NCBI GenBank assembly: GCA_041650915.1
Contig: JBAZKE010000001.1
Span: 43,694 to 107,693, forward strand
DNA length: 64,000 bases
Direction: 5' to 3'
Source: Patescibacteria group bacterium
GTDB taxonomy: Bacteria > Patescibacteriota > Patescibacteriia > UBA10025 > JAHIVO01
Position numbers and translations under genes: made by a program. This document shows, in pieces, positions 19,831-50,383 of this stretch (its first letter is position 1; each line of letters opens with the position of its first letter). The notes under the pieces are model-generated. The model was not told the DNA's origin. It worked only from the letters and a program-made list of their open reading frames with translations, and did not search any database.

Positions 19831-19857
19831 AGATATATGGCCAGCGCGGCATCCATG

Positions 19858-21082: not shown

Positions 21083-21114
21083 GGCATAGCCACTACTTCA
21101 GCAGCAATGGAGCA

Positions 21115-21150
21115 CGTCCGCCAGGTTTACCAGGCGGACGTTTTTTATTT
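21115..21150 (+). terminator. rho-independent terminator after plsX (CGTCCGCC-loop-GGCGGACG + TTTTTTATTT)
   Basis: 8-bp GC-rich stem at 21115-21122 / 21133-21140 with a 10-nt loop and an immediately following T-run. Confidence 0.6.
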
Positions 21151-21152
21151 AC

Positions 21153-21181
21153 TAGACAAGGGTACCATAATGTGATATAAT
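21153..21181 (+). promoter_or_regulatory. candidate promoter of the giant gene: TAGACA-17-TGaTATAAT (extended -10)
   Basis: Perfect -10 TATAAT at 21176-21181 preceded by TGa, with a -35-like TAGACA at 21153-21158. Followed by a 66-nt GT-rich leader containing hairpin GTTAGG/CCTAAC (21202-21224). Confidence 0.45.
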
Positions 21182-21247
21182 ACCTTTGTTAAGTTTGGTA
21201 AGTTAGGTTTGGTTTTTGCCTAACGTAAGCGCAGATAGCTAATTACC

Positions 21248-24200
21248 GTGGCGCTTTCAAAGCCATTCAAGAGAGCGGGTCAGTTCCTCGGGGGGAATAA
21301 GAATAAACAGGGAATTGACTTTAATGCACTGCCGGAGCTCCTCACCTTGGATCAGGTGAGTGAGATTCTTGGTGTCCATCCCAATACGCTCCGCAACTGG
21401 GATCGTTCCGGCAAGTTTGCCGCGCTCCGTGTCGGCCCGCGAAAAGACCGCCGCTACGAGAAAGAGGCTGTCTATAGGATGCACCTGGAGATGAAACCAG
21501 CGGTCCATGCAGCAGATCGGGAGGTCGATGGGCGCAAACCGGAGCCATCAGACAATAAGTACGTCATCCATCCCGGATTCTCGTGGAACAAGTTGCGGCT
21601 CTACTTCATGAGCCGCCGCTTTTCGATATTCGTATATTCGGTAGGGCTCGTCGCTTTCACCTTCGTGGTGATGCAGGTGACTTTTTTTGCGTACGTTTTC
21701 TTAGTCCGCGCCGAAGAGAAGCCTCCGCTCGTCGCCCGGCTCGCCCCATCGGCGGTGACCGGCTGGCAGGGTGCGGAAAAAGCGAAGACAATCGATGCAC
21801 TGGGCACGGCGCCGCTTGATGATTTCAGCATCTACAATTCAGCAGTTTTTTATAATGGTTCTGAGCCGATTGTTGTCGAGGAAGAGGAAGCCGCGGGCAC
21901 TGCCGAACCAGCGCAAGAGGCACCTGCCGAACCTGCGGTCGTGACGCCGCAGGACACCGAGCCCGAACCTGAAGAGCAAGCTCCTACGGAAGAGCCGCAA
22001 GCTCCTGCGGATGTTCCCGCAGAGGAGGCGGAAGAGCCGGTTGATGCATCCGCTATGCCTGCCGAAGAAGGCGAGGCGCCTGCTGTTGAGGAAGGGCTGC
22101 CTGCCGAAGCTGGCGTTGACGGGGGAGCGGCCACAGATGCCGCTGTTCCTGCAACGGAGGAGGCGGTGACCGATGAATCCGACGCGACGGTCGTGAAGGG
22201 CATGGTACTCGGCGAAGAGACGGATGCTGCAGACGAGCCGCTGTCGGAGCAGAATCCGGTGCTCGAGGCTCGGTCATTCGCGGTACCGGAAGCTATTCCC
22301 GCTGGCACGCAGATCAGTGATGCGCGGCTCCTGCTGTCTTTTGCCGCGGATACGTATCCGGACAATGAAGATGTGATTACCTTTTCCTACTCAGTGGACG
22401 GGAGCAGCTGGACCGTGCTCGATTCGCAGGGGCTCATTTCGGATATGAGTAACGGTACGCACGAGGGTTACTGGTCCTTCAGCATCCCCGAACTCCATGT
22501 CATCGATGAAATTGCAGATCTGATTGTACGGGTGGAATACCACGCAGTCGCACCGGTTGAAATGAGCACCGCGTACCTGGACGGCATTGAGCTCGACCTG
22601 ACGCTCGAGGAACCCGATGCGGTTGCCGCGGAGATTATCGAGAGCGTTGAGATAGAAAATGATGTGCTCGATACAGGCGAGGATCCCACGATCAACGTCC
22701 ATATCGAAGAAGAGTCGCCCCTCTCTTTCCTCGGCGCGTCATCACGGCAGCGTACGGTGAAAGACGTCCGGCTGCAGGATCCGAACGGGCGGGAGATTGA
22801 AGCGGTATACACGATTGCCGATGAACAGCAGGGCAGCGTAAAGACGGCAGCGTACACTTTTGATACGGGGGCATTTTCCAAGCCGGGCAAGTATACCGTT
22901 ACCTTGGAGGTTGAACAAAACGGTACGGTCGAGGAGGTTGAACAGGATTTCACCTGGGGCGTTTTGGCCATTAATCCCGATTACGCCATACAGAAGCTCG
23001 GGCAGGAAACGCAGTTTTCCATCGGCGTTCTGGACGATTCAGGCGATATCGTGTGCGACGCGGAAGTCACGCTGGAAATAGTAGATCCCGCCGGCCATGC
23101 CGTTACCCAGTCGACCGTTGACGGCAGGATTACCGTGAGTGACAGCTGCCTGACCAAAGGCGTGTACCAAGGCCCGGATTATTATTCGACCTACACGCCG
23201 CAGATGCCGGGCACGTACCAGCTGCACCTTACCGCAACGCACTACAACGGCACCCGCACCCTGGACAGCGAGTTTGCGGTCGAGGCGAATCCGCGCTTTA
23301 CCGTAAAGCGCACCGGGCCGACCCGCATCTTCCCGTACGTGTACCAGCCGATGCTTCTGGAAGTAACGGCATATGAAGATTTTACCGGCGAGATAACGGA
23401 GATCGTGCCGGGCGTATTTGAAATTGAGGTGCACAATGACGGCGCGATCCGGCCGTTTGACCAGGGAGGGCATATCGACCACCAGATCGTTTGGAAAGCT
23501 TCGTTGAAGGCCGGAGAATCAGCCACGTTCGGGTATTCGTTCAAAACGCCGGAAGAAAGCCCGGCACTGTATATGGCTGGTCCGGCGGCTGTGGGTACCG
23601 TGTGGGACGAAGGCCGGCAGTGGCAGATGGCGATTGACGCGACGTATGTATATCTGCTTTCATCATCAAACAGCGCTCCGGCCGGCTGGTCGTACGTGGA
23701 CACGTACAACAGCAAGTATGTCCGGGGAGCGTCTAGCTTCAGCGGAACGGGCGGCGGCGCTGCAACCCATACGCATACATACAGCGAATCAGTAACTGAT
23801 TCGAGCGTCAATACGGCTGGAATTGTATGCTCACGGCGATGTTTAAGCGTAGCGGGTTTGGGCCATACCCATACGTCAACCGGCAGCACGATAGGGCCTG
23901 AAAACAATGATCCGGCGCATTATACGTACCGGCTCTGGAAGTACGATACAGCTGACGCAACGCCCATGACGATCCCCCAGAATGCGTTTATCTTTTGGAA
24001 AGATAATAGCGCGGATCCATCATCGCCGTGGACCCGTTTTTCCAGCGGCGATGACCGCATGGTCAAGCTTGCGGATAGCCACACCACGGGCGGTTCGACT
24101 ACCCATAAGCATACCATCACCTGGGGCAGCCTCAATGCGACTACGGGCACAAATATTGAAGGTATTCTTGGTGACATATACACCATGACGTCGGCAACTC

Positions 24201-36200: not shown

Positions 36201-39200
36201 GCGTCATTTCAGTTGCAAATAACATGGTGATCGGCGGTTCGCATCTCGCATGTACGGTTAGCGGCGCATTGTATATGACGAATTTGGACGTCGGCAACAA
36301 CGTGACGATAAATATCGGTACTGCTTTTGTTGCACCTAGCGCGGCAGCGAGCTTTACGGTGGGCGGCAGTTGGTCTAACTCCGACACCTTTACGCACTCG
36401 AGCGGCACGGTTACGTTTGATGCCAATACAACCGGCAAGACCATCCAGTCAAATTCGAACAATTGGAATAATGTCACGTTCAATAACGCGAGCGGCGGGT
36501 GGAGTTTTTCCGACACGACAACGCTGGCTGGCGACCTGACCGTCACCGCAGGCACGCTGTCCGGTACGGTTGATATCGACGTGCAGGGCGGCGACTTGAA
36601 GGGCGACGGGACCGTAACCATGACCGCGGGAACCGTGAATCTTATCAATGACGGCACGATCGGCACGTCGTCCGGCTCAAATGACTGGACGTTCTATGAC
36701 CTGAACCTTGGGCAGACCGGTTGTGCGGCAAACACCACCACTACGGCAAATGCCGGCACCGGCGCTATCATCATCACGAATACCTTTACATATGATGCAT
36801 GCTCGTGCGGCGAAGAGTGCGCACGGTACCACCGCGTACACCCGGGTGCGAGAACGTGGCGCCTGACCGGTACGGGCACGCCGCTGGAATCTGGCATAAT
36901 CAATGTCGGAAATATTGGAACCTCAGTATTCCAGTTCACTGGTACGGGAAGCGCGGTAGCGGTCGCGGGTTATTATTTTTACGACCTCGAACTGATTCCC
37001 GGTTCGGCAACTGATTATAGTTTTAGCGCCCCTACCCTCTACGCGATCGGCCATGATTTGACGATCAATGTGAACGCTGCCGGCAATTTCGATCCCGGAT
37101 CCGCTTACGTTGAGATGGGCGGTGCCACTGGCACCCTGGACGTGAATGGGGCTGATATCCAAGAATTGCGGACTGATCTTGGAACCAGCAACGCGATAAC
37201 GGTAGCGTCTGATGCGATGATTTCATACCGGTTTGTCATTTTTGACGCAGGTGACGTGCTGTCGGTTTCAAGCGGGGCCACGGTTACTCATACCGGTGCG
37301 ACTGCGAATATCCTCGGCGGCACCATATCCGGCGACGGGTTACTTACCTTTACCAATACTTCCACCGGCCCGTCAACCGGCGGCACGGTTACCGCAGACG
37401 TGCGGTTTGACGCGACGGACGGGGATATCACCTCTTCGACGTTTGATACCCGTACGTACGGCGGCGACCTGGAACTGTACAGCGCGCATTCTAGCGGACG
37501 CACCATTACGCCAGCTGCCGGAACGCTTACCGTAGGGGGCAACTTAAACACTACCTCAACAACATCCACGCTTGCAGCTGCGTTTAATACGAATAATCCA
37601 ACGACGCTTATTGGCACGATCGATAATGCGTTAACTGGTGATGTCTCGATTTGCGCAACGTGCACCCTGTCAGCGCCGGGTTCGTTGACGCTGTACGGCG
37701 ATTACCAAAATTCCGGCACCTTTACCCATAACAACGGTACGGTGACGCTCGGTGCGCCCGGCATAGTACAAGCCCAGGCCATGTACGGGGCGATGACCGG
37801 CGCCAGTGCATTCTATAATCTAACCGTGGAAAACGACTTTGAAGCTAACGGTCCTTCATTTGTTAACGATTCTGAGGTTTCCAACACGTATACCATTACG
37901 ACGCCGGCTGTTCTCGTATACTACGATACGGGCACAACCCATACGTACAACAATGTGAACTGGAACGGGCAGGCTGCCGGAAGCCGGATCCGGCTTGTCG
38001 GCACTGATACTTGGAACCTCGAAGTGTCCGGCACCCAGAGCGTGAGCTATGTGGACGCGAGCTATTCAAACGCCTGCGGCGGAGACGTGATCGACGCAGA
38101 CAACGGCACGAATAATAACGGCGGCAATAATAGCTGCTGGGATTTTATCCAGGGCGTTGAAATAGACGGGATTGCGTACGCTGAGAATGAAAGCACGCCG
38201 CTGGGGATCGGACGAGACGTCACCTTACTGGTCAACGGCGAGGAGAATTCGTGCAGTTTTACGCCGTGTACCGGGTCGACGGACGGCGTTGGCGGGTATG
38301 CGATCGCGGATGTTGACGTGCTTTCCGGAGACGTGGTAACCGTGTACTTGGACGACGCTTCAGAAGAAGCGACTATGGTGTACATCAGCAATGGCACCGC
38401 CCAGACGAATATTGATTTATACCAAAACGCGGTTATTGCGCGGGCGGACACCGGATCAATCACCAATGCTAATCTGTCGACCGGCGATGGAGGGGATGAT
38501 GATATAAAGTATGCTGTTGCGGGCAATAATGCCACGTTTGATTCCGGATTTGAACTCCACGTGTGGACGGGCGATACGTACGATCCGGGCGGCCAGATAA
38601 TTACACAAGGCGCGGGTGGCGATCTTCACGTGGATGACAGCGCGCTTGCGTACGTCGACACGGCAAGCTCTGCGATTGCCGGTTCAGTGAGCATTGATAC
38701 CGGCGGTACGGTTACGATGCAGTCCGGCACATGGACTATAGCTGGTGATATGACGGTAACGGGAACGTTCAACGGGACCGGAGATACGGTAGTGAATGGC
38801 GGCGATATGACCGGCACGGGATCAGTCAGTTTAACGGGCGGCAGCGTCACGATGGCTGCTGGGGGCAGCATTGACCTCGGGGGCACTGATACGTTTTCTA
38901 CCCTTATTATCAACAATGGTGATGCCACGACTACCGTAGTAGGCAGCTTGAATATTTCAGGCGGCCTTGAGGTGAGCGCTGGCGATACGCTGGCAAACAG
39001 CACCGGCACCATGAAGCTCAATACAAGCACGGCAACCCTGGCGCTTGCGGGCACCATCAGCGGCTCCGGGACTCTGGTTTACCAGTCGGGAGTTGCGTTC
39101 CCAACCGGCGGCACGCTGTCGATGAACGTGATATTTGACCCCCACCTGACAAGCCAGAGCATGAGTGCGCGAACGTACGGCGGCGACGTGAAGATCAATG

Positions 39201-42200
39201 ATATAGCCGGAAATCCGAGCAGCAACCGTACCGTGACTATGCTTGCCGGTTCATATACGATTATTGGCCAGCTGTGGATGGTTGAGGATACGATGCGAAT
39301 AATCACGCTCGATGCGGCCACGAACGACCCGACCGTGCAAATTAACGGAGACCTGACAGGGAGCGGTACGTCGAGCAATCTCACGCTTCATATGGGCGCT
39401 GGCACATGGACGGTTGGCGATGATGTGAACCTAACACATATGGATGTTGATGTTGAAACTGGGGGAGAGCTTGAGCTGACCGGATCCACTGATTCCATAC
39501 TATCCGCTAGTGCTACCGATATTTTTTACGATTTGACCATGTCCGGAAGCGATGTGGAGTTCGGGCCGGTCGGCGAGGGATGGAGCGCGATCGCGGTTTC
39601 CCATGACCTTAGCTTAACCGGCACGCTTGACGCGAAACTAGCAACAGTGCAGATGGTAGGCGCTGGCGGTTCAATCATCGGCGGAGGCAATACGCTTTAT
39701 AAATTGAAAATTGATCCTGATCCGGACGGCACGGTGACCCTTACCACTTCCGATCTCACGATCAGTAATAGCATATCGACTCCGTTGGAAGTAACTGACA
39801 GCGGCGATATACTATCTATTGAAAGTGGCAGAGTTTTGACCGTCACCGGCGCGACTACGACGGAGATTTCCGGTGTTGGGTCTATTACGGGCGATGGTAC
39901 GCTGCGGTTTGACCACAATTCAGGCGGGCCGGGAACAACCCTTGGAACGCTCGGTGTAGCGGTGCGCTATGACGCGACGTTGGGTGATATCGCGCCGGAA
40001 ACGTTTGACGCGAGGACGTACGGCGGCGATGTCGAAGTATATGCAGGCACAGGCCTGATTGAACGCGTTGTTACGGCGCCATCATCCGGCACGTTTGCGT
40101 TTGAAAAAGCACTGACAACCACCTGCTCTTCGTGTAATTTGCTTACCCTTGGTTTTGACGGCGTCACTGACCCGACGGTTACCATTGATGGGGCATTAAC
40201 GATCGGCGCTACAACCGGATTGTCAGCCCCGTCTAGCGTGGATTTTACACTCAATGGGGGCTATACGAACAGCGGCAGTTTTTACGATAACAGTGGTACT
40301 ATAGTACTTGGCGGTTCAGCAATCCAGACGCTTGATGGCACCATGACCGGCGTGTCTGATTTTAATAACCTGACGATAACAAACGCCTCGGCGGCCGGTA
40401 TCGTATTTGCCAAAGCAGCGACGATTTCCGGCACATACACGATCACGACTGCGGATGTGAAAGTGACCTACCTTGCTGGCGCTGCATATACGGTTACGGA
40501 TATCAATTGGGACGGCCAGGACGCGGGTACCCGCATTGAATTCGTGAGCTCAACGCCGGATACGCAGTGGAATCTCAACGTGTCGGGCACTCAGACGGAT
40601 GTGAGTTACGTTAACGTGACCGATTCAAATGCGTGCGCTGGCGATGAGATCGTTGCAAATAACGGCACAAACTATAATGGAGGCAATAACGACTGCTGGC
40701 TATTCGGTATCCACATTTCGGGCACCTCGAATACAACGGGCACGGTCAAGGCGGCCATCAACACCTCGCTTGAACCGGATTCAGACTTGATCGCAGAAGG
40801 CACCTGGGATATCGAAACGAGCACCGTGCCGGTCGTGAACGATGTTATTACGGTTTTTATCGACGAGGCAGAAGAGTCCGGCGAATCGAGCGCGGTAACG
40901 CGGTACGATGGCAGCGGGAGCCTCACCGGCGTGGTGCTCGATGCAAACGTGCTGTCCATCGGGAGCGACAATTCAATATACGTGCGCCTGGATGACTTTG
41001 TTTACACCCGTTCGCTCGATGAGGATTTGATGTTTGACCTGAGCACGGGAGAGTGCAGTTCGAGGACGCTCACGATTGACGCGGTCGGGCAGTATACTGA
41101 CGAGACGCTCTCGATCCTCGGGGGAAGCCAGCTCTACCTTCTGTCTTACTTCAATGACGGCGGGCCATGCAACCGCTACGATACGGTCAATACCCACAAT
41201 ATTGATATCAGCGGCTATTTGTCCGAAACCGGCGACAGGGAGTCAACCATCAATGTTTCCGGTTCCTGGGCAAACAGCGGCACGTCTACCAGCGGCATCG
41301 GCGGCACGCAGGGAGGGTTTGAATCCGGAAATTCGGTTGTTAACTTTACGGCGCCATCCGGCACCGAGACTATCAATTCCTCTGCCGCGATCAGCGGCGG
41401 CGGGTTGCGGGCATTCGATGATATTGTTTTCAATGACTCCAGCGGCTCGGCGACATATTTGCTGAAGTCCGACCTGGATGCCAATCATGACATTACAATT
41501 ACTGGCGGCACGCTTGATGCCGAGTCAGGCGTTAACCATGATATTTATGTAGGCGGTGTGTGGAACAACGATGATACGTTTGAAGCTAGGTGGGGCAAGG
41601 TGATTTTCGACGGTGCAGGAACGTTTATGCTGTATGCCGGTTCGTCGTGGTTTTATGACCTTGAGTTTAATAATGTTGGCGGTTTATGGGATTTTGATGA
41701 GGATGCAGTCACGGCCGGCAACGACGTCGTGGTCACGGTCGGCATCCTCGAGACCGAAGTGGATATCACTATCAAAGGCGGTGACCTTACCGGCGACGGT
41801 ACTGTGACGTTCAACGGCGGCACGCTTACCATGGAGCAGACTGGCACGATCGGCACTGCCAGCGGCAGCAATAATTGGACACTGTACAATGTCACGTACG
41901 GGCTCGGTGGCCAATGCACGTTGGATTATACGACTACGGCAAACGGCGGCGCTGGCACGATTACCGTCGCCGGGCAGATGCAGGGTTCTGCATGCAGTTG
42001 CGGCGGAGAATGCTTTAAGGTCCATCGGCTTGATCCAGGAGCAAGAACGTGGATATTCAGCGGAACAGGGCTCTCGGGCGCTGCCGATAAAATACCCCTT
42101 GTTGATTCGACATTTATAAATAACGGCGGCACCTCAACAGCCCGCTTTACCGCGACGACCGGCCCTGGCTATGTTGTGCAGGTTAGCGACAATGATTATT

Positions 42201-45200: not shown

Positions 45201-48200
45201 ATTCAACGAGCAGCGGCACGATCCGGTTCAACGGCACCGGCACCGGTGAAACTAACGTGCTCAATAATCTGAGCGTTACCGGCACGGGATTTGATACCAC
45301 GGTCGATGTCAATACAAACGACCGCATCATTGACGCGAATAATGTTTCTCTCAGCGCGGACGCTGTATTTCAGGCATCAAACTCGGCGGCATTTACCGTG
45401 AGCGGCAACTGGTCCAATAGCGGCACATTTACCTCAAATTCAGGCACGGTTACGTTTGACGGCGCGGATTCGTCGACGCAGGCATTTACCGGCGATACGA
45501 CGTTCGGCAGCTTTACGGCAACGACCGCCGATAATTCTGCGGGCCGTACGCTGCAGTTTGCCGGGAGTTCCACAACTGCCGTGTCCGGAACCTGGACGGT
45601 CACCGGCGCATCCGGCAAGGTGCTTACTCTGCAGTCATCCGATACGAACAACTGGACGATTAATCCCACTGCGGCGTCCGTGACGTACGTCAGCGTTTCC
45701 CGGTCTACTAATGCCGGTGCGTCTTTCTGCGCCACGTATTCAAATGACGGCGGGAACAACGTAAATTGGGCTATTTCCACGGGTGCGCAGTGCCAGGTCA
45801 TTAGCGGTACGATTTATAGTGATATCAGTTCTGCTGAGTATGACTGTACCACTCCGTATACCGTTAAATTACGCGTGAATGGTTCTGGTACGTATTCCAC
45901 GGAATGTACCAATACGCCAACCATGGGATATTTCGAGTTTAATAATGTAGCCTCGACTAGCGGCGACGTTATTACGTTATATTTAGACAATGAAGAATAT
46001 GAGGGTACGACCGTCATGGTTACGGACGGGACCATACAGACCGACGTTGATATCTATTGGGATAATACGATCGTGAGGGCGGATACTGGTTCGATTACCA
46101 ATGCGAATCTGGCAACGGGTGATGACGGGGATGATGATGTCAAGTACAATGTGGCAACGAATAACGTGACGTACGATTCTAGTTTCGGTTTGTACGTGTG
46201 GGATGGGGATACATACGATCCGGGCGGTACGATTGCACTGTCAAACGCTGATGTATGGGTTGGGCCCAGCGCAACACTATACTTTGATACCGCCACCAAT
46301 ACGCCCGGCAATAATATGAGCGTTATGACTGGCGCAACTGTGCATGTCGATGCCGCTACCACGTTTGCGAACGGCATTGATGTGATGGGGAGCGTGATCG
46401 GAACCGGAGATCTTACGCTTACCATCGGTTCTATGGTTTCAAGCAACGGGATCGGAACCGTTACTATGACGGGTGGAACTGTAACGCTCGGTGGTGGCGG
46501 CACATTTCAGTCAAGCAGTGCCGATTGGACGTTCCATGATTTGTATTTAGCGCAACCGCCGGCTTGTAGCGTACCGGCAACGTGCACCGAGATCACCTGT
46601 GCAAAAGTTACCAATGCTTCAGGTACTGGCGGCGTGACGATCAGCGGCACCGTTACAAGCGATATATGCTCACCTCCGATGCCGTCAGAAAATACCTATG
46701 CGCATCAGCTTGATGCTGCTGTGGGTAATCCAAAAGTATGGACTTTTAACGGAGATTCCGGAGACGCGAGTCCCTATGTTCCGATTACGAGTGTATATAT
46801 GGAAAATGTCGAGACGCATGAATCAACCTTTGCGTTTACCAGTATTGATTCCAACGGAGTCAGCATGCCGTTAAACTCGATGGATTTTTATAATCTTTCA
46901 ATCAATCCTGCGTCTGCGACTGACTACAATTTCGAAGCGCCTGCCTATCGGCTCTGGAATGACTTATTTATTCACCCGAATGCAAATGTGATTTCGGGTT
47001 CAACAGTAATGGCATTTGCTTGCGATGATTGCGAGATCAATGCGGGCGGTACCACATTTGGTGATGTGGAAGTTTATTATTCTGATAAAAACGTTTCGGT
47101 CACTACAACGGGCACTGATTTCAGTATTGCTGGCCGGCTTTGGATGGCAACAGGGATAAGCTATACGACGGATTTGGTTATAGGTGAAGGCCGCACCGTA
47201 ACTATGGAAAACGGCAGTACCGTAAACCTTGGCACTACGTCTACGGTTGGAGGAGCGGGCACCTGGGAGTTTTTGCCGGGCTCATCCGGTCCGGATGACG
47301 TGGGGACGGTTAATTCGGTTGTTCGGTACAATGCTTCATCGGATAATATAGCGAATACGACGTTTGATCCGCGCACATACGGTAATAACGTTGAGATATA
47401 TTCCGAGAGCAGCGCAGGTGACCGCTCGGTTGCGTTCGCGGCAGGTACGTACACGCTGTCCGGCGCAAATGCTGATTTTACTATCGAATCAGCAGGCACG
47501 AGCAACTTGAGCCTCGCTAATTCCGCAGGTACGGTGAATATGGCTATCGGCGGCGATCTGGGATTTACCAAAGGAAGCACGGGCACGCCGTCGGTTACGA
47601 CCGGTGCCGGCACCTGGGCCGTAAGCGGGGACGTTGATTTGAGTAACGGCACGTTTACGGCATCTTCGGGCCATACGCTTGAGCTGGATGCGGCAGCGGA
47701 CGGCACGGGGCTCATCACATCGGCAGGGAATACCCTCATGAACTTCCTCGCGTCCGGGAGCGACTTGGTTGGGAGCACGGACGCGCTCGATGCAGACGGC
47801 ACGTTTGGGGTAAGTGAAACAGCTGATTTTGCCCAAGCTGCTGATAATAATCTGAACGTTGCCGGAAATTTCACGATCGCTTCCGGCGCTACCTTTAATA
47901 AAGCTTCTGGCAGCGGCACGCTCATCTTTGACAGTAATACCGACTTTACGGACAGCAGCTCGCCGCTGCAAGACCTTGGCAGCGTGACAATATCCGGGCT
48001 GGTTGACCTGCTTTCAAATATGAAGGAAGAGTCCCTTGCTATCAGCGGTACGCTCCGCCAGGACGGGTATGACCTTGATGTGGGCGGGGGTATCACGGTG
48101 CAGAGCGGCGCAAATTTATGGCCGGTGGCTGGTGCAGGCGGCGATCCGGCGATTAATCTCGAGGGAAGCCTGACTATTGAGGATGCTGCGGTATTCAATT

Positions 48201-50383
48201 CCGAGAACTCTACGGTCACGTTTGACGGCACGAGCGGCACGGCGGATCTGATAACCGACCCTGCTTGCACAGACTGCAATCTTGATACGCTTGTTGTCAA
48301 TGACGGCGGAGGCGGGTTATTGACCGTTGAGGTTGAAGACGCGCTTGATGCAGCACACGTCACGATAACGAGCGGCACGCTTGATGCGGTCGCGCTGGAG
48401 AGCAATGCCATCAACGTTTCCGGGAATTGGGTCAACGATGACACGTTTGAAGCGCGAAATGGCACGGTGACGTTTGCAGCAACGGACGGGGATAACAGGA
48501 TCGAGAGCGGCATATCGCCTTTTTACAATGTTGATTTTAACGGAGCGGACGGCGCATGGACCTTGTATGAGCCGCTGGACGTCAACGGCACGTTTGACCT
48601 GACGCAAGGCACGTTTGTCCAGGGAACGGATTATAATCTCAACGTTGCCGGTGATTTCACGCTTGCGAATGGCACGACGTTTACCAAAGACACTGGCACC
48701 GGTCTTGTTATTTTCGACGGCGACCTGACATTTACGGACAGCAATGGGACCAAACAGGATATCGGAAGCGTAGAAATCGGAATGTCGCCTGATACTACGG
48801 AACTCGCGTCTGATATGTCAGCGACCACGCTTAATGTCAATAATAATGATATCCTGAATACCAATGGATATGACCTGAATATCGGCACGGGCGGGGTTAC
48901 TATTAAAAATGGCGGCGTTATCAACGCTCTTGATGACGTTGAGACGGATGAAACGATGATCAATACTGAGGGTGACTTTGAGATTAGTTCGGGTGGCGAC
49001 TTTAATTACGACCAGTCAACGATAATTTTTGACGCAGGATCAGGCACTGATGACCTTATTACCGACGGATCGGGCGATAACTATGCGGTGTACAATCTGC
49101 AGTTAAATGATGCCGGTGGCAGCTTGACTGTTGAGGTTGAGGATGATGTTGTTATCAAGGGCAATGTTACGGTTACTGCCGGCACGCTTGATGTTAAGAC
49201 GGAGAATAATGCCATTACCGTCGGCGGCAGCTGGACTAACGCAGACACCTTTACTGCGCGCGGCGGTACGGTAACATTTGATGGCGCTTCCGGCAGCGCT
49301 GGCACGTTTGACATTGATTCTACCGGTGCGACAACCGATGACTTTTACCACCTGGCTTTCAACGACGCTGGTGACGGCGATACGTTCCAGCTCGAATCAG
49401 CACTCGACGTAAACGGTAATCTCACCATCACCGGAGGCACGCTGGATACCAAGTCAGGGGAGGATAATGGCATTACGGCAGCAGGCAATTGGACCAATGA
49501 TGATACGTTTACAGCAAATAGCGGGACGGTAACGCTTGACGGCACGGGGCAGCAGGCGCTCTCCGGGCAGATGACGGGCGTATCAGACCGGTTTTACGAC
49601 CTCACGGTCACAAACACCGGCGTATCGAATCCCGACGTTATCTTCGCCGCTTCTGCCGAAACAGCGCATACGTTTACCGCGGGTACGGCAGGATCACAGG
49701 TGCAGTTCGACGACGCCGGGACGTATACGTTCCAGAATATCGATCTCGACGGCCAGGACCCCGCGACGCGCATTGTCCTGACGAGCGATTCCGCAGGCAC
49801 CCAGTGGGATATTAACGTCGCTGGCACGAGGAGCGTGTACAGCACCGATGTGCAGGACTCGAACGCGTGCGGCCAGCCGCCTGATATCAATGCCACACAC
49901 ATATCGAATAAGGATTCAGGCAATACGGACTGTTGGGACTTCACGGCAATTACCTTCACGATCAGCAGCAATGCGATCGACCTTGGCACGCTTTCAACCG
50001 GCTCTGTCAGTACGACGAGCCATACCGTCAGGACGGTCACGAGCGCAGATAGCGGCTACACGACGCTCGTCTACGACGACGGCAACCTCAGGAAGGGTTC
50101 CGACGATATCAACGACGTGGCTGACGGTGCCGTGACGGCAGGTTCGGAAGAGTACGGCCTCTCGACCACGGACAGCAGCCAGGACATTGCCCAGGATGCG
50201 GCCTGCGGCAGCGCTCCGTACACCGCATCCGCACTCACCGCGACCCAGCAGTCAGTCGCAGGAGCTGCCTCCGGTCCGGTGGATGAAACGATCACGGTCT
50301 GCTATGCAGCCTCGATCGACGTGAATACGATTTCGGGATCGTACGTTCATACCGTCACGTATATAACGGTAGGCCAGTTTTAA
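21248..50383 (+). CDS. giant (up to 9,711 aa) membrane-anchored, Thr/Gly/Asn/Asp-rich repetitive surface fibre / adhesin-like protein
   Basis: Single uninterrupted 29.1-kb ORF. Start is uncertain: GTG 21248, ATG 21479 (preceded by AAAGAGG) or ATG 21608. Parts in order: in-frame HTH (aa ~28-78), long hydrophobic anchor (aa ~125-152), acidic PE-rich linker, Ig-like domains, HxH tail-collar-like repeats, beta-helix-like GGT/NGT repeat arrays organised into ~8 super-repeats, and a C-terminal ~140-aa domain shared with the next gene. Confidence 0.9.
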   Translation: MALSKPFKRAGQFLGGNKNKQGIDFNALPELLTLDQVSEILGVHPNTLRNWDRSGKFAALRVGPRKDRRYEKEAVYRMHLEMKPAVHAADREVDGRKPEPSDNKYVIHPGFSWNKLRLYFMSRRFSIFVYSVGLVAFTFVVMQVTFFAYVFLVRAEEKPPLVARLAPSAVTGWQGAEKAKTIDALGTAPLDDFSIYNSAVFYNGSEPIVVEEEEAAGTAEPAQEAPAEPAVVTPQDTEPEPEEQAPTEEPQAPADVPAEEAEEPVDASAMPAEEGEAPAVEEGLPAEAGVDGGAATDAAVPATEEAVTDESDATVVKGMVLGEETDAADEPLSEQNPVLEARSFAVPEAIPAGTQISDARLLLSFAADTYPDNEDVITFSYSVDGSSWTVLDSQGLISDMSNGTHEGYWSFSIPELHVIDEIADLIVRVEYHAVAPVEMSTAYLDGIELDLTLEEPDAVAAEIIESVEIENDVLDTGEDPTINVHIEEESPLSFLGASSRQRTVKDVRLQDPNGREIEAVYTIADEQQGSVKTAAYTFDTGAFSKPGKYTVTLEVEQNGTVEEVEQDFTWGVLAINPDYAIQKLGQETQFSIGVLDDSGDIVCDAEVTLEIVDPAGHAVTQSTVDGRITVSDSCLTKGVYQGPDYYSTYTPQMPGTYQLHLTATHYNGTRTLDSEFAVEANPRFTVKRTGPTRIFPYVYQPMLLEVTAYEDFTGEITEIVPGVFEIEVHNDGAIRPFDQGGHIDHQIVWKASLKAGESATFGYSFKTPEESPALYMAGPAAVGTVWDEGRQWQMAIDATYVYLLSSSNSAPAGWSYVDTYNSKYVRGASSFSGTGGGAATHTHTYSESVTDSSVNTAGIVCSRRCLSVAGLGHTHTSTGSTIGPENNDPAHYTYRLWKYDTADATPMTIPQNAFIFWKDNSADPSSPWTRFSSGDDRMVKLADSHTTGGSTTHKHTITWGSLNATTGTNIEGILGDIYTMTSATHTHTAPTSSYTSEETLLPEYVTLDIWQQPDATPQAIVTGTVAMFDGTLPTGWTAISNGSPYQNRLVRGSTTAGSQAGSATHGHDDTEGTTGGASAQVKPGEGLDVLTAAENHTHGIRLADFSSGDQTPPYVDFVLAECTTCAITTITAGGIAYQENESTPIDGTSDNKTITLLVNGANTACGGGACTDTIDDDTGAWSISNITSSSGDIITVYLDDETEEATTVFVSDDTTQSNVDLYQNAVVVRHDTGASITNANLLTGDGGDDDIKYSVTGGALSVDTGFELHVWAGDTYDPGGAVTTQGTGGDVHVDDNATMYIDTIDSRITNNIMIDSGAALTVQVNSQVDGGAAGGVTVAGTLNASGGTFTVGDGTDEVVYVDSGTVNVDGGILTIKDDLYNNSAGGTEDINISSGTVNVGDDFRVESTADVDVTGGTVNVTGMLDVNGGTFDTSGSSDVNVTEILDQDGGTVTFGGTSTVDFGGVANAVNDGALNQTGGTVTFGNSTDEDLYANAGATITLSGGTTEIKDDFFLPSVTGSATVSNTVNMTAGSNETIDLDGGTLTVYEGADINCDYRLDVRAASIVDLNGGSLDTGNYWLIYDGTLNLDGGDHNIGTSGYLYFLPNATSITFNQTGGQITTYRLFVGNGAGTMYTPTVTGGTINIGTAAGTKDIYFTEAGDYKFYNVTIEENAVFNTSSTNSLKLAGSFTINNGKTFGANAEAIQIEGDNAGSPTGGFINEGTFTYGTSTVTMLNGEIKGSPDVMLTWSSFYNLNIGDATTSNTIDVGGSNNFWVQNAFAITSGDALSIGSGLYAGHSGPTFTLDGTVSGDGTLAFDSASPGPGTGGTLSANVRYDTTAGNIAAATFDARTYGGDVDIYLGELVIGAKSAIAGAGTLAIGGGLTLTDESAEGLSLDMNTNDPTTTVAGSVTVCATCTLSAPSTVSDTAFIVNGSWANSGTFTANGGQVTLDGSATQTLSGTMSGASSFANLKIRDASARTVDFEAQAITTGTYTIENDTNATTVQYENVADSAPFTFADISWGQAGTNGITFAGESGSSEWHLKVTDASQAVSYVSVSWSDASVTDGLEIAASDGTNTDGNNNTNWDFGFTISGTSTSFGTVKVAVNTTVQTDSAVISGGTWQITADADPISGDVITAYIDGVDDSLEAVGVTKYDGTGTISGMVLNGYEVWFGSTSDTPSLTLTDLENWDYDNDEDVFFSVASSTLEMNGDSAHSLNVLQIMDNATLTLSTGQTLNVTELFVRSDVTDGHLTMSGSPIINVKELFNNAGDYNASTETVNMANTMIGYITAAGASDSDIYNLNISPTSGLLTVSLNSALVVNNALTVTAGTFAVDENLNVNGAENALTVSGGTLSHTAGTLTVGNSTNEDLYITSGVVTTSGGNLVVTDDIRHAGGTVNINDGSNVDVTGQYTNDLAGSPILNLNGGSMDCQSHILLDRGTVNLNGGVHRAGVAVTDGIIEMNRNSTKSEHFYFNMTGGELHGRAIVIYDNKTLHTDTVSGGQLWVDNISEITATEEFYQWNTDSPTFWSLVLNEDDARINSTSQITDLNGDLIINSSMGLYQQGREIKVAGNWTHNGTTYSHGNGTVHMDGVDSTGSINGTTASTFYNLYLEDNTSLSNGNVTVEYVLLLLGGIDFSIGSGRTATVTSAGGMTGLTGSTVSGDGTLIFQAPTLTGPAPAIDSLLRMDAVDTDQSIESGPTRNFGSTVEFYNSGASSRTITIGSGADQTFNFYGDATSTVTGGGTLSVRQDTYNPIVNIVGDFTIGASSTYIASATGALNLSGSYTNTGAFTHSSGTVTLNGTALQTLSGTMTGASSFNSLTITNAYGSVSGCDTLFSPGVSFGTSATIAGTYTITTAGVNVRYNSGSTYTVNNINWQGGAGDEIIFRNSNLTSGTWLLAVSGTQTNVSYVNAARSDASSGDVIDASNGTNTDCDNNTNWDFYAGILVTGTLGFSPAAGTVKVAVDGDVQTDGYDVTGGSPWEVYTDAELAGDETVTVFIDGAETADESTAITGYDGSGDITGMVLNQHVLTAGSADNHTLVVDDFSTYWNTDDEDVMHGIFLGMETMTLYVDNSQYTDERLHIVSGTTVRLTSNSGDLENLNTFNITIDGTLDITGTATAQIDVYGNWDNNGAFNSNTSYTIFRATSGSFTIDSTGASASAFYRLTLGGVSGSATFTLESPLVVNNNLMINYGTLDTKSGENNSITVGGTWTNYDTFTANTGSVTFTGTGSINGDHDTTFYDLTIGDGTDGTMTVNGTDDPTVTHNIDIDAGDILSIGSDRTVTYTYDANSFTLDGTISGAGRLVYKSSDAFPATGTISTIVRFDATDVIWQNTGGRTYGNTVEIYHNSDALPKLIYLAGSGATVINGDLLFMTGASASLDMTVSNTNNYDVDIAGSLSVSKSGSGDITFDAGTAAYTVGDDVNFTNAAVTLEAGSLVEMTGAEDGTGTLTSAGTTLQDVTLSGGTITLADATHTISGSLDMTGAAVTAGTSTVLMNGAVASLYGGGNALNNLTLSSDSTTTLYSDIDIDGVLDITASDTLDIYVGIFATLTHYAELTFNGTISGIGGYLVYQSSTQFPAAGGTFGSMLNVRFDANYVNMVIPGRNYGTGIFELYNTGATNKTIYLGTGTGQTFSQTEEVNIVRTGAGSLLVDADFYDPTVTFGYMTIGAGTTYLSANSHTFTCFYDCDNQGTFTHNDGTVAVGTSGMNLAGDWTGSSALYNLTTDKNLDFDGAVTVANTFTIDNGSNTVDVEFEPGATYTFANIVWGQAGTNAVTMHGETSSAWNLKVTDEYSSQQVSYVTVSYSNACVSGGQNIDATDGTNNNNGNNSCWDFSDSMDISGTADGNAGELVKLAVNGVRTTEVGNIITGAPNTWTIANVGTINSGDVVTVWIENTIGNISDTDESSGITKYDGSGDVTGMALDTHVLTVGSADNPSFVRDDFLLYYNDDDEDIMHGKDETPDCKDGICPTDLNSDIDNVYSDDLFRVLSGATVTLSADADDYYDVLDAHDVTNEGTIVTTTTGLTPKLQISGSWNNTVAATFTSSLEQFTFDSSSAGETITTGGDPVYSLFFMGTGSWSNADALTVNNGLYVQNTGTFNVTGNDVTVKGASGMHISDGTVAISSGIVTVGDSTDEDLILDGGTLNASGGTLIVQDDLITTAAGNAEDINVTGGVLTVNGSLDINDGTVDFGPGASGAIDVNVSDCMHQTAGAVTVGTGSYAVDVDIDNGEFTSACTSLTHGYEITGGTLTIDTNADVAITDAYYFQTGGTFNLDGGSIAMAGPAGYSFEFSGGTFNLDGGTVDADDDKDYYVNLSDTGPVTFNMYSGDIYTSAFYVQNNYTTTTLNPALGGTIHISGPESGGSKFYQYSDDSPHFYNLSIEKGIVGYPVSFQSGGQNETILDGDFTILNADDYFRPWGQAIAIKGDYTNNGTCYSCNSSTFTFDGTAGQALSGNLNGTSMLDAVIIENSGGTVDIDNYLRANSLTIDNSGGTVDIEWESDADGTNYHEFADIVWGQAGANAITFTKETSANSQWYLKVTDTSQQVSYVAVADSNACVSGGQTIMADDGTSVDNDNNDCWDFGLVIISGTAPSYIDGTTIKVAVDDEEQAGKTGSVTSEAWTIEDVLVPDGAIVTVWVDGAGEITESTAVTEHIGDGDITGMVLNINVITLGSTSDAATLTANNLAQWQNGDNEDVMHSVLSDIGGGQTMYSDYSSEYTDDTFRILTGTTLTINSGTGEPTWEDALIVDNLILDGSLTMSGGYSPQVEIWGDWDNNGDFNTDGSETVQFRAAETGHTIDHTGSSDSDIQQLTFNGSGGRWTVLHPSTWVINGDMTMSNGIADIATNMRVDGGDVTGNGVVNAFAGSFEVTGAGNFGGDSAWVFNDLTFSGNTYTTTAAGSGSITVGNVLTIGSGHALNAGSKTWILSDTGTPLIIAGTLTPSSSTFRYTGAGATTVFDASYYNLEVIPGADSVTHTLSSDLLSGVISVANNMVIGGSHLACTVSGALYMTNLDVGNNVTINIGTAFVAPSAAASFTVGGSWSNSDTFTHSSGTVTFDANTTGKTIQSNSNNWNNVTFNNASGGWSFSDTTTLAGDLTVTAGTLSGTVDIDVQGGDLKGDGTVTMTAGTVNLINDGTIGTSSGSNDWTFYDLNLGQTGCAANTTTTANAGTGAIIITNTFTYDACSCGEECARYHRVHPGARTWRLTGTGTPLESGIINVGNIGTSVFQFTGTGSAVAVAGYYFYDLELIPGSATDYSFSAPTLYAIGHDLTINVNAAGNFDPGSAYVEMGGATGTLDVNGADIQELRTDLGTSNAITVASDAMISYRFVIFDAGDVLSVSSGATVTHTGATANILGGTISGDGLLTFTNTSTGPSTGGTVTADVRFDATDGDITSSTFDTRTYGGDLELYSAHSSGRTITPAAGTLTVGGNLNTTSTTSTLAAAFNTNNPTTLIGTIDNALTGDVSICATCTLSAPGSLTLYGDYQNSGTFTHNNGTVTLGAPGIVQAQAMYGAMTGASAFYNLTVENDFEANGPSFVNDSEVSNTYTITTPAVLVYYDTGTTHTYNNVNWNGQAAGSRIRLVGTDTWNLEVSGTQSVSYVDASYSNACGGDVIDADNGTNNNGGNNSCWDFIQGVEIDGIAYAENESTPLGIGRDVTLLVNGEENSCSFTPCTGSTDGVGGYAIADVDVLSGDVVTVYLDDASEEATMVYISNGTAQTNIDLYQNAVIARADTGSITNANLSTGDGGDDDIKYAVAGNNATFDSGFELHVWTGDTYDPGGQIITQGAGGDLHVDDSALAYVDTASSAIAGSVSIDTGGTVTMQSGTWTIAGDMTVTGTFNGTGDTVVNGGDMTGTGSVSLTGGSVTMAAGGSIDLGGTDTFSTLIINNGDATTTVVGSLNISGGLEVSAGDTLANSTGTMKLNTSTATLALAGTISGSGTLVYQSGVAFPTGGTLSMNVIFDPHLTSQSMSARTYGGDVKINDIAGNPSSNRTVTMLAGSYTIIGQLWMVEDTMRIITLDAATNDPTVQINGDLTGSGTSSNLTLHMGAGTWTVGDDVNLTHMDVDVETGGELELTGSTDSILSASATDIFYDLTMSGSDVEFGPVGEGWSAIAVSHDLSLTGTLDAKLATVQMVGAGGSIIGGGNTLYKLKIDPDPDGTVTLTTSDLTISNSISTPLEVTDSGDILSIESGRVLTVTGATTTEISGVGSITGDGTLRFDHNSGGPGTTLGTLGVAVRYDATLGDIAPETFDARTYGGDVEVYAGTGLIERVVTAPSSGTFAFEKALTTTCSSCNLLTLGFDGVTDPTVTIDGALTIGATTGLSAPSSVDFTLNGGYTNSGSFYDNSGTIVLGGSAIQTLDGTMTGVSDFNNLTITNASAAGIVFAKAATISGTYTITTADVKVTYLAGAAYTVTDINWDGQDAGTRIEFVSSTPDTQWNLNVSGTQTDVSYVNVTDSNACAGDEIVANNGTNYNGGNNDCWLFGIHISGTSNTTGTVKAAINTSLEPDSDLIAEGTWDIETSTVPVVNDVITVFIDEAEESGESSAVTRYDGSGSLTGVVLDANVLSIGSDNSIYVRLDDFVYTRSLDEDLMFDLSTGECSSRTLTIDAVGQYTDETLSILGGSQLYLLSYFNDGGPCNRYDTVNTHNIDISGYLSETGDRESTINVSGSWANSGTSTSGIGGTQGGFESGNSVVNFTAPSGTETINSSAAISGGGLRAFDDIVFNDSSGSATYLLKSDLDANHDITITGGTLDAESGVNHDIYVGGVWNNDDTFEARWGKVIFDGAGTFMLYAGSSWFYDLEFNNVGGLWDFDEDAVTAGNDVVVTVGILETEVDITIKGGDLTGDGTVTFNGGTLTMEQTGTIGTASGSNNWTLYNVTYGLGGQCTLDYTTTANGGAGTITVAGQMQGSACSCGGECFKVHRLDPGARTWIFSGTGLSGAADKIPLVDSTFINNGGTSTARFTATTGPGYVVQVSDNDYYNLEMLPAESEDYEWSSDTGIYGIYHDLTINSNAAANFDEKQAVLRLYGTDQTIDANGADLYDVGTWTDGVQAVSIASDVTITSRFLELYSGNTITIADGATMTVSGAQTNIIADGAVLTSVGTGMLRFLPGTTGPGTTGTLSANVRYDATDGDIASGTIDARTYGNRVEVYSGSSSADRTVTIASGTYTLSGASSHLHLLANGDNNVTLAGATNNPTVTIGGNVDFAGTGGGSEIITSGTGTWTVSGNVDFTGGTYTATSGNTLIMNGTGTPSITSASNSLYNFQTSGTGTITPQDNLTAANDITLGNGTTVSSAHDITANGGDLTTTGGTGTGVLTHTAGTVSISGTGNVGGNSAWTVQNLTFSQAVCADYTTTATGTGTITVNGTLLTDDCTSGETEYHKLAAGSKTWILTGTTPFTNDGGLDGGTSLFRFTTAGPATIPLGNVGGSTGYYTLELKPSGSSPTYTFAAGADFNINNNLVIGDGTNSVTVSGTANNPTLDIAGSVSCTAGASTNTVATGTGTWHVATNADLSECDSWTATSGHTLDMDGAGQITAAGKTLYNFQSSGMGVVSYSAMDVNGTFTVATGSNFEQADEDNINVAGNFTIQASSTFLAAEGAGMLILDGDLTFTDSTVGLQDLGDVQVGTSPDTTNLASDMKANSLTVATGDFFYTNGYDLDLGTGGLTVDGTFDAADDVETDETLITTNGDVRFSAPATFGQDQSTIEFDGSSGTDVLLTSAKPIYNLVIDGGANLLVELGSALDADGSITINVGELDVTAAPYAITLGGSWINADTFTARTGTVTIDGSSAVGTFDINSTGATAASFYNLILNDAGGGDTFELESALDVDNDLTITGGTLDTKNGSNWGISVGGDWTNADIFTARAGIVTFNATDTGHTINSGSSQFFSVVFDGASGSWSPLTNNITITGTLTMTNGTFDTSAGTANVTVRSHVQCGATCGTINMASTNTFTVQALFTATINFGTNVAVATDWTFYNLTLHSTSSGTIRFNGTGTGETNVLNNLSVTGTGFDTTVDVNTNDRIIDANNVSLSADAVFQASNSAAFTVSGNWSNSGTFTSNSGTVTFDGADSSTQAFTGDTTFGSFTATTADNSAGRTLQFAGSSTTAVSGTWTVTGASGKVLTLQSSDTNNWTINPTAASVTYVSVSRSTNAGASFCATYSNDGGNNVNWAISTGAQCQVISGTIYSDISSAEYDCTTPYTVKLRVNGSGTYSTECTNTPTMGYFEFNNVASTSGDVITLYLDNEEYEGTTVMVTDGTIQTDVDIYWDNTIVRADTGSITNANLATGDDGDDDVKYNVATNNVTYDSSFGLYVWDGDTYDPGGTIALSNADVWVGPSATLYFDTATNTPGNNMSVMTGATVHVDAATTFANGIDVMGSVIGTGDLTLTIGSMVSSNGIGTVTMTGGTVTLGGGGTFQSSSADWTFHDLYLAQPPACSVPATCTEITCAKVTNASGTGGVTISGTVTSDICSPPMPSENTYAHQLDAAVGNPKVWTFNGDSGDASPYVPITSVYMENVETHESTFAFTSIDSNGVSMPLNSMDFYNLSINPASATDYNFEAPAYRLWNDLFIHPNANVISGSTVMAFACDDCEINAGGTTFGDVEVYYSDKNVSVTTTGTDFSIAGRLWMATGISYTTDLVIGEGRTVTMENGSTVNLGTTSTVGGAGTWEFLPGSSGPDDVGTVNSVVRYNASSDNIANTTFDPRTYGNNVEIYSESSAGDRSVAFAAGTYTLSGANADFTIESAGTSNLSLANSAGTVNMAIGGDLGFTKGSTGTPSVTTGAGTWAVSGDVDLSNGTFTASSGHTLELDAAADGTGLITSAGNTLMNFLASGSDLVGSTDALDADGTFGVSETADFAQAADNNLNVAGNFTIASGATFNKASGSGTLIFDSNTDFTDSSSPLQDLGSVTISGLVDLLSNMKEESLAISGTLRQDGYDLDVGGGITVQSGANLWPVAGAGGDPAINLEGSLTIEDAAVFNSENSTVTFDGTSGTADLITDPACTDCNLDTLVVNDGGGGLLTVEVEDALDAAHVTITSGTLDAVALESNAINVSGNWVNDDTFEARNGTVTFAATDGDNRIESGISPFYNVDFNGADGAWTLYEPLDVNGTFDLTQGTFVQGTDYNLNVAGDFTLANGTTFTKDTGTGLVIFDGDLTFTDSNGTKQDIGSVEIGMSPDTTELASDMSATTLNVNNNDILNTNGYDLNIGTGGVTIKNGGVINALDDVETDETMINTEGDFEISSGGDFNYDQSTIIFDAGSGTDDLITDGSGDNYAVYNLQLNDAGGSLTVEVEDDVVIKGNVTVTAGTLDVKTENNAITVGGSWTNADTFTARGGTVTFDGASGSAGTFDIDSTGATTDDFYHLAFNDAGDGDTFQLESALDVNGNLTITGGTLDTKSGEDNGITAAGNWTNDDTFTANSGTVTLDGTGQQALSGQMTGVSDRFYDLTVTNTGVSNPDVIFAASAETAHTFTAGTAGSQVQFDDAGTYTFQNIDLDGQDPATRIVLTSDSAGTQWDINVAGTRSVYSTDVQDSNACGQPPDINATHISNKDSGNTDCWDFTAITFTISSNAIDLGTLSTGSVSTTSHTVRTVTSADSGYTTLVYDDGNLRKGSDDINDVADGAVTAGSEEYGLSTTDSSQDIAQDAACGSAPYTASALTATQQSVAGAASGPVDETITVCYAASIDVNTISGSYVHTVTYITVGQF
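27290..49945 (+). repeat. protein-level tandem super-repeats (~2.3-3.1 kb period, ~8 copies) within giant CDS
   Basis: Each unit ends with ...NI.W.GQ.AG..I.F......W.L.VSGTQ..VSYV.V..SNAC...I.A.DGTN..GNN.CWDF. The W/C-WDF codons are at ~27.50, 30.07, 32.74, 34.99, 38.14, 40.70, 45.76 and 49.94 kb. Divergent at nucleotide level. Confidence 0.6.
50051..50317 (+). repeat. 267-nt perfect direct repeat, copy 1 (3' end of giant CDS)
   Basis: Identical nucleotide string to 51244..51510 (offset 1193 nt). Antisense ORFs 50071..50295 and 51264..51488 translate to identical 74-aa peptides, confirming identity. Confidence 0.9.

Follow-up and report, generated by a model that had tools for sequence, protein, structure and literature searches.

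Giant beta-helical proteins resembling adhesins are already well known. Among the described systems closest to the locus reported here, the WxL/Csc clusters encode a small WxL protein together with a large one that bears its WxL domain at the C-terminus, and a protein of the DUF916–DUF3324–transmembrane (TM) type (PMC10599100, PMC9772566); some of the large WxL proteins carry beta-helical adhesin domains (PMC9772566). A second group comprises the type V adhesins (pertactin, Hap, VacA p55 and Fap2; HMW1, EtpA and HxuA), beta-helical adhesins or toxins exported by type V secretion, together with phage tailspikes. Giant surface proteins are further represented by the giant genes of Omnitrophota and by Giant1–5 of Apilactobacillus kunkeei (PMC12863079). 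The Patescibacteria in culture live as ultra-small episymbionts, whose means of recognizing and holding their hosts are largely obscure. Here we analysed a stretch of 64,000 nucleotides (nt) from a Patescibacteria group bacterium (assembly GCA_041650915.1, contig JBAZKE010000001.1, positions 43,694 to 107,693; hereafter the window), which harbors a 29.1-kb giant gene followed by genes of putative surface proteins.

The giant gene probably encodes an acidic extracellular fibre of about 1 MDa that belongs to a conserved surface-complex gene cluster and would be docked via its C-terminal domain (CTD). Its recurrent architecture of helix-turn-helix (HTH), hydrophobic leader, stalk units and docking domain, together with the seven-gene cluster, provides testable candidates for an attachment apparatus. 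In the literature searched, we found no description of an HTH-headed leader of a giant fibre, of a CTD common to a neighbour and held by gene conversion, of a WxL-like cluster in Patescibacteria, or of a conserved promoter element of HTH-headed giants.

The giant gene

21248–50383, plus strand: giant open reading frame (ORF) with GTG start, 9,711 amino acids (aa), one terminal stop, about 1,004 kDa, pI about 4.05

This ORF is a genuine gene on the core chromosome of a Kerfeldbacteria-like Patescibacterium. Given uniform codons, a stop-free run of 9,711 codons has a chance of about 1e-202. Thus, the single 29.1-kb ORF reported in the preliminary description is upheld as a giant gene, with one terminal stop, no near-identical internal DNA repeats and known orthologues. 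The flanking genes are core housekeeping genes, including metK, a Mur ligase gene, rpoB, rpoC, ftsK, a RodZ-like gene, recA and plsX at the 5′ side, and murI, iPGM and PGM at the 3′ side. A second assembly built with MEGAHIT (ENA ERZ27247363) displays the same recA–plsX–giant order, the ORF being open for 9,647 codons to the contig end. The 345-aa protein encoded next to the giant gene is identical to NCBI WC505_00270 from a Patescibacteria metagenome-assembled genome (MAG), encoded on a contig of 679,916 bp, and its nearest named relatives belong to Candidatus Kerfeldbacteria.

The source assembly is a short-read metagenome, and a k141 contig built with MEGAHIT for this organism breaks off within an exact repeat of 267 nt that closes the 3′ part of the gene, as might be expected if a collapsed or chimeric repeat region mimicked one ORF. 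Such an artefact or pseudogene is nevertheless highly improbable. The longest direct DNA repeats inside the gene are about 160 nt at 62%–74% identity, the sole tandem array found by Tandem Repeats Finder is 44 nt, and the repeats recognized by self-comparison of the protein share 25%–58% identity. Moreover, the reading frame runs through 9,711 codons without a stop, and the gene order on either side of the exact repeat is kept in other genomes. The same architecture also recurs in many independent assemblies: orthologous representatives of 3,391–6,677 aa possess the same HTH, modules and CTD, one of them, of 5,954 aa, coming from a single-cell genome. Given the short and diverged internal repeats and the orthologues in independent assemblies, we rejected the collapsed-repeat explanation.

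The giant gene was initially rated as one of the largest bacterial ORFs possible, which is overstated, since predicted proteins are reported to reach 85,804 aa (bioRxiv 10.1101/2023.11.21.568195). Similar to the giants of Omnitrophota and A. kunkeei, the window giant is a multi-thousand-residue, putatively extracellular protein to which a small genome devotes several per cent of its length; however, its domain make-up differs, no homology was detected, and its size is unexceptional. As the gene occupies 29.1 kb of a 680-kb contig, or about 4%, it must matter to the organism.

Within the giant gene, 16 antisense ORFs of 150–450 aa are found on the minus strand between 21850 and 48513, 13 of which lie in one antisense frame. 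The longest one (450 aa) has a Ser/Pro/Val/Ala-rich translation. They were rejected as genes and regarded as shadow ORFs.

Globular domains and the beta-helical body

22238–24646, plus strand: non-repetitive beta-rich domains of about 800 aa (aa 331–1133), with weak immunoglobulin-like (Ig-like) matches at about aa 506–680
24647–49942, plus strand: beta-helix body (aa 1134–9565), from a map of module hidden Markov models (HMMs) and self-similarity
24647, 27515, 30074, 32756, 35000, 38147, 40709 and 45803, plus strand: starts of the eight stalk units
38147–40930, plus strand: modelled stalk unit (aa 5634–6561), a right-handed parallel beta-helix

According to the structural model, most of the giant chain is composed of eight right-handed parallel beta-helix stalk units. 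Delimited by HMMs built from the giant protein itself, the units are 748–1,698 aa each and start with a small beta-sandwich, termed igB. A cap module of about 90 aa, with a Cys pair and the pattern ...NAC...C-W-D-F, closes seven of the eight units, whereas the copy of the seventh unit is degenerate and undetected by the HMM. The hydrophobic and Thr positions of the body follow a period of 21–22 residues, and the modelled unit, a parallel beta-helix with regular rungs, agrees with the Thr/Gly/Asn-rich beta-helix-like repeats noticed earlier. Its fold relatives, with their scores, are PL6 lyases (13.8), phage tailspikes (12–13.7), HxuA (13.2), Fap2 (11.9), pertactin (11.8) and EtpA (11.1), in addition to Hap and HMW1. 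At about 21.5 residues and 0.48 nm per rung, the fully extended body would measure roughly 190 nm.

Searches of the whole protein and its sub-regions against Pfam, NCBIfam and PHROGs yielded nothing past the HTH and weak Ig-like matches, and no catalytic family. The acidic pI of 4.05, the paired cysteines and the lack of a catalytic family make an extended fibre or adhesin the best reading of the protein. Thus, the proposal of a fibre or adhesin rather than an enzyme gains support at the level of fold and from the extracellular-like composition, adhesion itself being a putative function. Cysteines, described before as almost absent except in a few knots, are indeed scarce (69 residues, 0.7%), and most of them form closely spaced pairs. 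Two Cys clusters, ACSCGEEC and ACSCGGEC, are located at aa 5185–5191 and 6916–6922 (about 36800–36820 and 41990–42015) within Cys-poor units.

The Ig-like domains proposed for the region preceding the body are partly borne out: the matches at aa 506–680 are weak (Filamin, 1.3e-5; MG2, 1.6e-5; PKD, weak), nothing stronger was found there, and a small beta domain starts the modelled unit. Three repeats of about 112 aa at aa 841–1100 (about 23768–24560) each contain two T-H-x-H motifs 32 aa apart, which read in order THTHT, GHTHT, THKHT, THTHT, THGH and NHTHG. These repeats could provide metal sites. They have no match in Pfam, PHROGs or the PDB sequences, and a tail-collar identity, unsupported by these searches, was rejected. 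In the PDB sequence search, neither the N-terminal globular region nor a profile of the beta-helix unit found a match.

The giant differs from the type V adhesins in several respects. A beta-barrel translocator and a TPS domain are missing, as is an outer membrane, and the protein shares no sequence-level similarity with these adhesins. Small beta-sandwich and cap modules break up its stalk at eight places, and it is apparently attached via a C-terminal Ig-like docking domain. Neither the giant nor its neighbours match the autotransporter, TPS or haemagglutinin families of Pfam and NCBIfam. As no translocator, TPS domain or TpsB-type partner was found, membership of the type V adhesins was rejected. 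Identity with the TLP-1 fibril (CryoSeek) was also rejected, given a resemblance at the fold level only, with 12% identity; the relatives of TLP-1 are proteins of Flavobacteriales.

The shared C-terminal domain and the downstream cluster

49943–50380, plus strand: CTD (aa 9566–9711, 146 aa, Ig-like), common to the next gene
50051–50317, plus strand: 267-nt tract, an exact run identical to 51244–51510 of the next gene
50539–51576, plus strand: 345-aa secreted protein with signal peptide, N-terminal Ig-like domain and the same CTD
51611–53608, plus strand: two paralogous WxLIP/DUF916-like proteins (315 aa at 51611–52558; 331 aa at 52613–53608)
53622–54521, plus strand: dockerin protein (Dockerin_1, 36.3 bits versus 22.9)
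54526–55668, plus strand: cohesin protein with a C-terminal TM segment (Cohesin, 26.6 bits versus 24.1)
55678–58188, plus strand: 836-aa multi-TM protein with CarboxypepD_reg (60.1 bits versus 32.3)

The distinct C-terminal domain noticed at first inspection is present, but the next gene has it too, and gene conversion maintains the similarity of the two copies. Over its 146 aa, it shares 86% identity with the C-terminus of the 345-aa neighbour. The central 267 nt are identical between the two genes, whereas the flanks hold 17 synonymous and 20 non-synonymous codon differences; as judged from this pattern, the tract is the product of a recent gene conversion. An HMM of the CTD retrieved 13 other HTH-headed giants that end in this domain, with E values of 1e-21 to 1e-50. 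Large and small proteins are paired via a shared CTD in 12 other genomes at 65%–82% identity, the large partner ranging from 551 aa to at least 5,954 aa. In diverged lineages, the identity of the CTDs within a genome exceeds that between orthologues, which indicates concerted evolution.

The 345-aa protein has 135 homologues at E ≤ 0.001 and no Pfam family. Its AF2 model (pLDDT 94.2) shows tandem Ig-like folds in a confident, complete two-domain monomer. In five other proteins (L012 12054–13385, L018 12196–13569, P0098, P0104 and P0113), the N-terminal domain of the 345-aa protein carries a dockerin instead of the CTD. The two modules are therefore interchangeable, which argues that the CTD is an attachment module. 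As the CTD and the dockerin replace each other on a shared domain, the locus is linked to the cohesin–dockerin system by functional analogy, not by membership; the giant protein itself contains neither dockerin nor cohesin in the Pfam scan.

The 315- and 331-aa proteins each have a signal peptide, beta domains, a C-terminal TM helix and a basic tail, as predicted from their sequences. The 331-aa type adjoins the small CTD protein in nearly all loci examined. The dockerin, cohesin and CarboxypepD_reg genes (53622–58188) occur in the same order in two related loci, L002 and L003, and at least 12 related genomes have retained the seven-gene surface-complex cluster.

A beta-sandwich pair of this kind also invites a pilus-like explanation, in which the 345-aa protein would polymerize by donor-strand exchange, the CTD of the giant being a pilin-type domain by which the fibre enters this filament as a tip or base subunit, and the 315- and 331-aa proteins being membrane-bound PapD-like chaperones. 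We consider this quite unlikely, because the structural scores fit any Ig-like sandwich (YcnI, 8.8; alpha-2-macroglobulin domains, about 7), the TM-scores are 0.2–0.26, an usher is absent, and the AF2 monomer (pLDDT 94) is already complete. Still further from the data is a CdiA-like polymorphic toxin, namely a beta-helical filament with a C-terminal toxin and a downstream immunity or orphan module, to which we attach next to no likelihood. The CTD is an Ig-like beta-sandwich that is 55%–66% conserved between genomes and not hypervariable, and the library scans yielded neither a TPS domain nor a toxin family. Since the next gene encodes, besides the same CTD, a signal peptide and an N-terminal domain that is itself conserved, its product is not an immunity protein. 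Membership of the CdiA-type toxins was thus rejected.

The N-terminal leader

21338–21472, plus strand: excisionase/MerR-type HTH, cytoplasmic (aa 31–75), Pfam HTH_17 (PF12728), E 1.4e-6
21623–21712, plus strand: hydrophobic segment (aa 126–155, 29–30 aa), ending at the signal-peptidase-I-like site VRA↓EE (A155/E156)
21725–21865, plus strand: conserved motif P....GW......A..ID...F...NSA (about aa 160–206), from the N-terminus alignment
21866–22237, plus strand: acidic Glu/Ala/Pro linker (aa 207–330), with 29 Glu, 28 Ala and 16 Pro among 124 residues

As predicted from sequence, the N-terminus of the giant is not a simple anchor: a conserved HTH_17 domain in the cytoplasm comes first, and the hydrophobic segment lies behind it. 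The HTH_17 match reaches 28.9 bits, above the Pfam cut-off of 27; MerR_1 also matches the N-terminus (25.5 bits versus a cut-off of 21.6), whereas the match to the BldC family is weak (19.4 bits versus a cut-off of 77). The hydrophobic segment is flanked by Arg-Arg on its N-terminal side, which adds to the extracellular character of the protein. The hydrophobic N-terminal anchor of the preliminary description thus stands as far as the segment at aa 126–155 is concerned; however, the preceding 125 aa with the HTH_17 domain had been missed, and the signal-peptidase-like motif right after the segment makes permanent membrane anchoring uncertain. The acidic Pro/Glu linker described there is present at aa 207–330.

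Relatives of the leader were collected by an exhaustive HMMER search with aa 1–170, whereas a word-indexed search with the N-terminal 200 aa gave only one small protein. The HTH and hydrophobic module heads more than 20 large proteins, with representatives of 2,875–6,677 aa. These HTH-headed giants contain about 50% Thr, Gly, Asn, Ser and Asp, and have the cap, igB, DLYQ and RTYG modules in common. Alignment of the N-termini of 23 HTH-headed giants revealed strong conservation of the HTH, the motif [V/A/I]-x-A↓[E/D/G] behind the hydrophobic segment in nearly every sequence, and then the P....GW motif; the combination of HTH, segment and cleavage-like motif is kept in more than 20 cluster representatives. 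Unlike the giants with their HTH leader, the small CTD-bearing proteins at other loci possess ordinary signal peptides.

The closest relatives of the HTH include many standalone HTH proteins of 55–85 aa, some of which share the repeat element found upstream of the giant gene (see below). Compared to these HTH_17 proteins, among them BldC-like regulators, the HTH of the giant is joined to a hydrophobic segment and, beyond it, to a putatively extracellular protein of megadalton size. The RodZ-like protein at 17512–18180, with an HTH_25/XRE domain, is a second protein of the window in which an N-terminal HTH is combined with a C-terminal Glucodextran_B-like domain.

Orientation of the fibre and a putative docking model

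In the putative model, the CTD would serve as a docking module, by which the fibre and the 345-aa protein are held at the cell surface by the WxLIP-like proteins anchored in the membrane. The stalk would then carry the globular N-terminal domains away from the cell, so that they could bind to a host cell or a substrate. The HTH and hydrophobic segment would represent an unusually long export leader or signal anchor, possibly cut at VRA↓EE. A role in adhesion to a host is suggested by the fold, the architecture and, by analogy, the episymbiotic lifestyle of cultivated Patescibacteria.

This arrangement is reminiscent of the WxL/Csc clusters. In both cases, a small secreted protein and a much larger one share a beta domain that is always C-terminal; here, the small/large pairing through a shared CTD was found at 86% identity in the window and in 12 other genomes. 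The window genes also adjoin a protein with a signal peptide, two beta domains and a C-terminal TM segment, with weak DUF916 matches in 14 of the 23 family members. There are also differences. The CTD of the giant lacks the Trp-x-Leu motif and a match to Pfam WxL (PF13731); the 345-aa small protein has an extra N-terminal domain; and the giant, whose length is some 10-fold that of a typical large WxL protein (500–1,000 aa), starts with an HTH and hydrophobic leader rather than a plain signal peptide. LPxTG partners are missing here, and a dockerin and a cohesin are present instead. Furthermore, more than 91% of WxL domain proteins belong to Firmicutes, mostly Bacilli, whereas the window cluster belongs to Patescibacteria. 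Membership of the WxL family therefore fails at the domain level: the motif is absent from the CTD, Pfam gives no match, and the phylum is another. By analogy, these comparisons suggest that a distant phylum follows the small/large/anchor logic of the Firmicutes clusters as well, but with another docking domain as its basis.

Several observations weigh against a WxL-like, CTD-docked beta-helical fibre. The CTD has no tryptophan in 146 aa and no Pfam match at E ≤ 5, and 96 relatives of the CTD-bearing small protein gave 0 matches to Pfam WxL at E ≤ 1, so homology to WxL is undetected. The 14 matches of the anchor family to Pfam WxLIP_PGBD (best E 2.7e-4) are all below the gathering score; none of the 23 members matches WxLIP_HBD, and a PDB sequence search with the family profile was also empty. 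The beta-helix was modelled for one of the eight units, with low confidence at residues of about 200–470. The hydrophobic segment of 29–30 aa is long for a cleaved signal peptide, and the Glu/Ala/Pro linker right after it looks wall-spanning; the two features alike favour a retained N-terminal anchor and a distal CTD. Surface location, partner binding and adhesion are what we infer from sequence features.

The last points fit an inverted arrangement, which we regard as possible though rather unlikely. The N-terminal segment would hold the fibre in the membrane, leaving the HTH inside the cell, and the linker would cross the wall. As the distal tip, the CTD would pair with the secreted 345-aa protein or, on a neighbour cell, with WxLIP-like proteins, and might in this way connect cells or cap the fibre. 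Besides the length of the segment and its N-terminal Arg-Arg, the conservation of the HTH in more than 20 representatives, as a permanently tethered cytoplasmic domain, agrees with this arrangement. Regions rich in Glu, Ala and Pro span the wall in Gram-positive surface proteins, and such a linker follows the segment directly. However, the signal-peptidase-like motif is nearly universal after the segment, the CTD is interchangeable with dockerin, a surface attachment module, and it co-occurs with the membrane-anchored WxLIP-like proteins. By analogy, the shared C-terminal domain of WxL clusters is also cell-proximal (PMC9772566). The cell-proximal end is thus ambiguous, either the CTD or the N-terminus being possible, with the dockerin swap and the cleavage-like site favouring the CTD-docked fibre, and the long segment and acidic linker favouring the retained anchor.

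Promoter region and candidate operator

21105–21152, plus strand: terminator-like hairpin with U-run after plsX, RNA fold −23.1 kcal/mol, z = −6.4
21153–21181, plus strand: sigma-70-type promoter-like site TAGACA, 17-nt spacer, extended −10 TGnTATAAT, 11/12 matches, TG present
21186–21230, plus strand: promoter-proximal element, comprising TTGTTAAGTTTGGTAAGT (21186–21203), a T-run and GCCTAACGTAAGC (21218–21230); candidate operator

The upstream terminator and the extended −10 promoter assigned to the giant gene are both recognizable. None of 200 shuffled sequences folds as well as the hairpin, though a consensus terminator scanner called nothing at this position, a miss attributable to an internal mismatch. 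The GACA of the −35 box and the −10 box are kept in five orthologous loci. From the −35 box on, the region is conserved, with 64% mean identity in an alignment of six loci, whereas the encoded N-termini are only about 50% identical. The aligned leader region harbors no conserved RNA structure (consensus −0.75 kcal/mol, no covariation), and an RNA-structure explanation of its conservation was rejected on these grounds.

Immediately past the −10 box, the promoter-proximal element holds three TAAG[T/C] direct repeats. The strict motif TAAGT-N4-6-TAAGT has 14 matches in 1.63 Mb, nine of which lie just past the −10 box of HTH genes. In its relaxed form, the motif is found upstream of 10 of 80 HTH loci, small standalone HTH genes included, versus a background of 0.94%. 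Since it also precedes standalone HTH genes, the motif tracks the HTH, not the giant body. Further sites were located in L023 (about 9916), L025 (about 1626), L028 (about 2899), L044 (347), L069 (274) and L076 (1164), and the element also lies 5′ of some standalone HTH_17 genes of 60–85 aa.

Xis and BldC-type proteins bind direct repeats head-to-tail. The TAAGT repeats of the giant gene may represent an operator, which agrees with their association with HTH genes, and the HTH may bind these conserved repeats at the promoter. More speculatively, and in our view doubtful, these giants of Patescibacteria would make up a class not described before, in which the export leader of a megadalton surface fibre doubles as a DNA-binding domain. 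The HTH could bind the repeats across the transcription start of its own gene, either while tethered to the membrane or after cleavage at VRA↓EE, and fibre export or surface engagement would then feed back directly on transcription. Alternatively, the HTH could tether the 29-kb gene to the membrane for co-translational export. Together, the HTH-bearing leader and the promoter element suggest a testable way in which a cell might control how much of a giant exported protein it makes.

Related loci and further observations

All 19 loci from GTDB belong to Patescibacteria-type MAGs or single-amplified genomes. Three GTDB records that carry the cluster (L006, L014 and L018) are titled 'uncultured Gammaproteobacteria bacterium', and their bins are probably mislabelled. 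In L023 (10001–21000, a JGI metagenome contig), the orthologous giant is split into genes of 2,047 and 1,621 aa with a 10-nt overlap, probably by a frameshift, be it genuine or an error of sequencing; this orthologue has a Peptidase_S8 match, which the window protein lacks.

Upstream of the giant gene, an 819-aa protein (5008–7467) displays an unusual architecture, its only Pfam match being a spermidine-synthase domain in the C-terminal part. Between recA and plsX (19477–19830; L001 3251–3604), a gene of 117 aa that lacks a Pfam match is called in the ENA assembly, and a longer ORF of no family (19564–20562) overlaps this area on the opposite strand.

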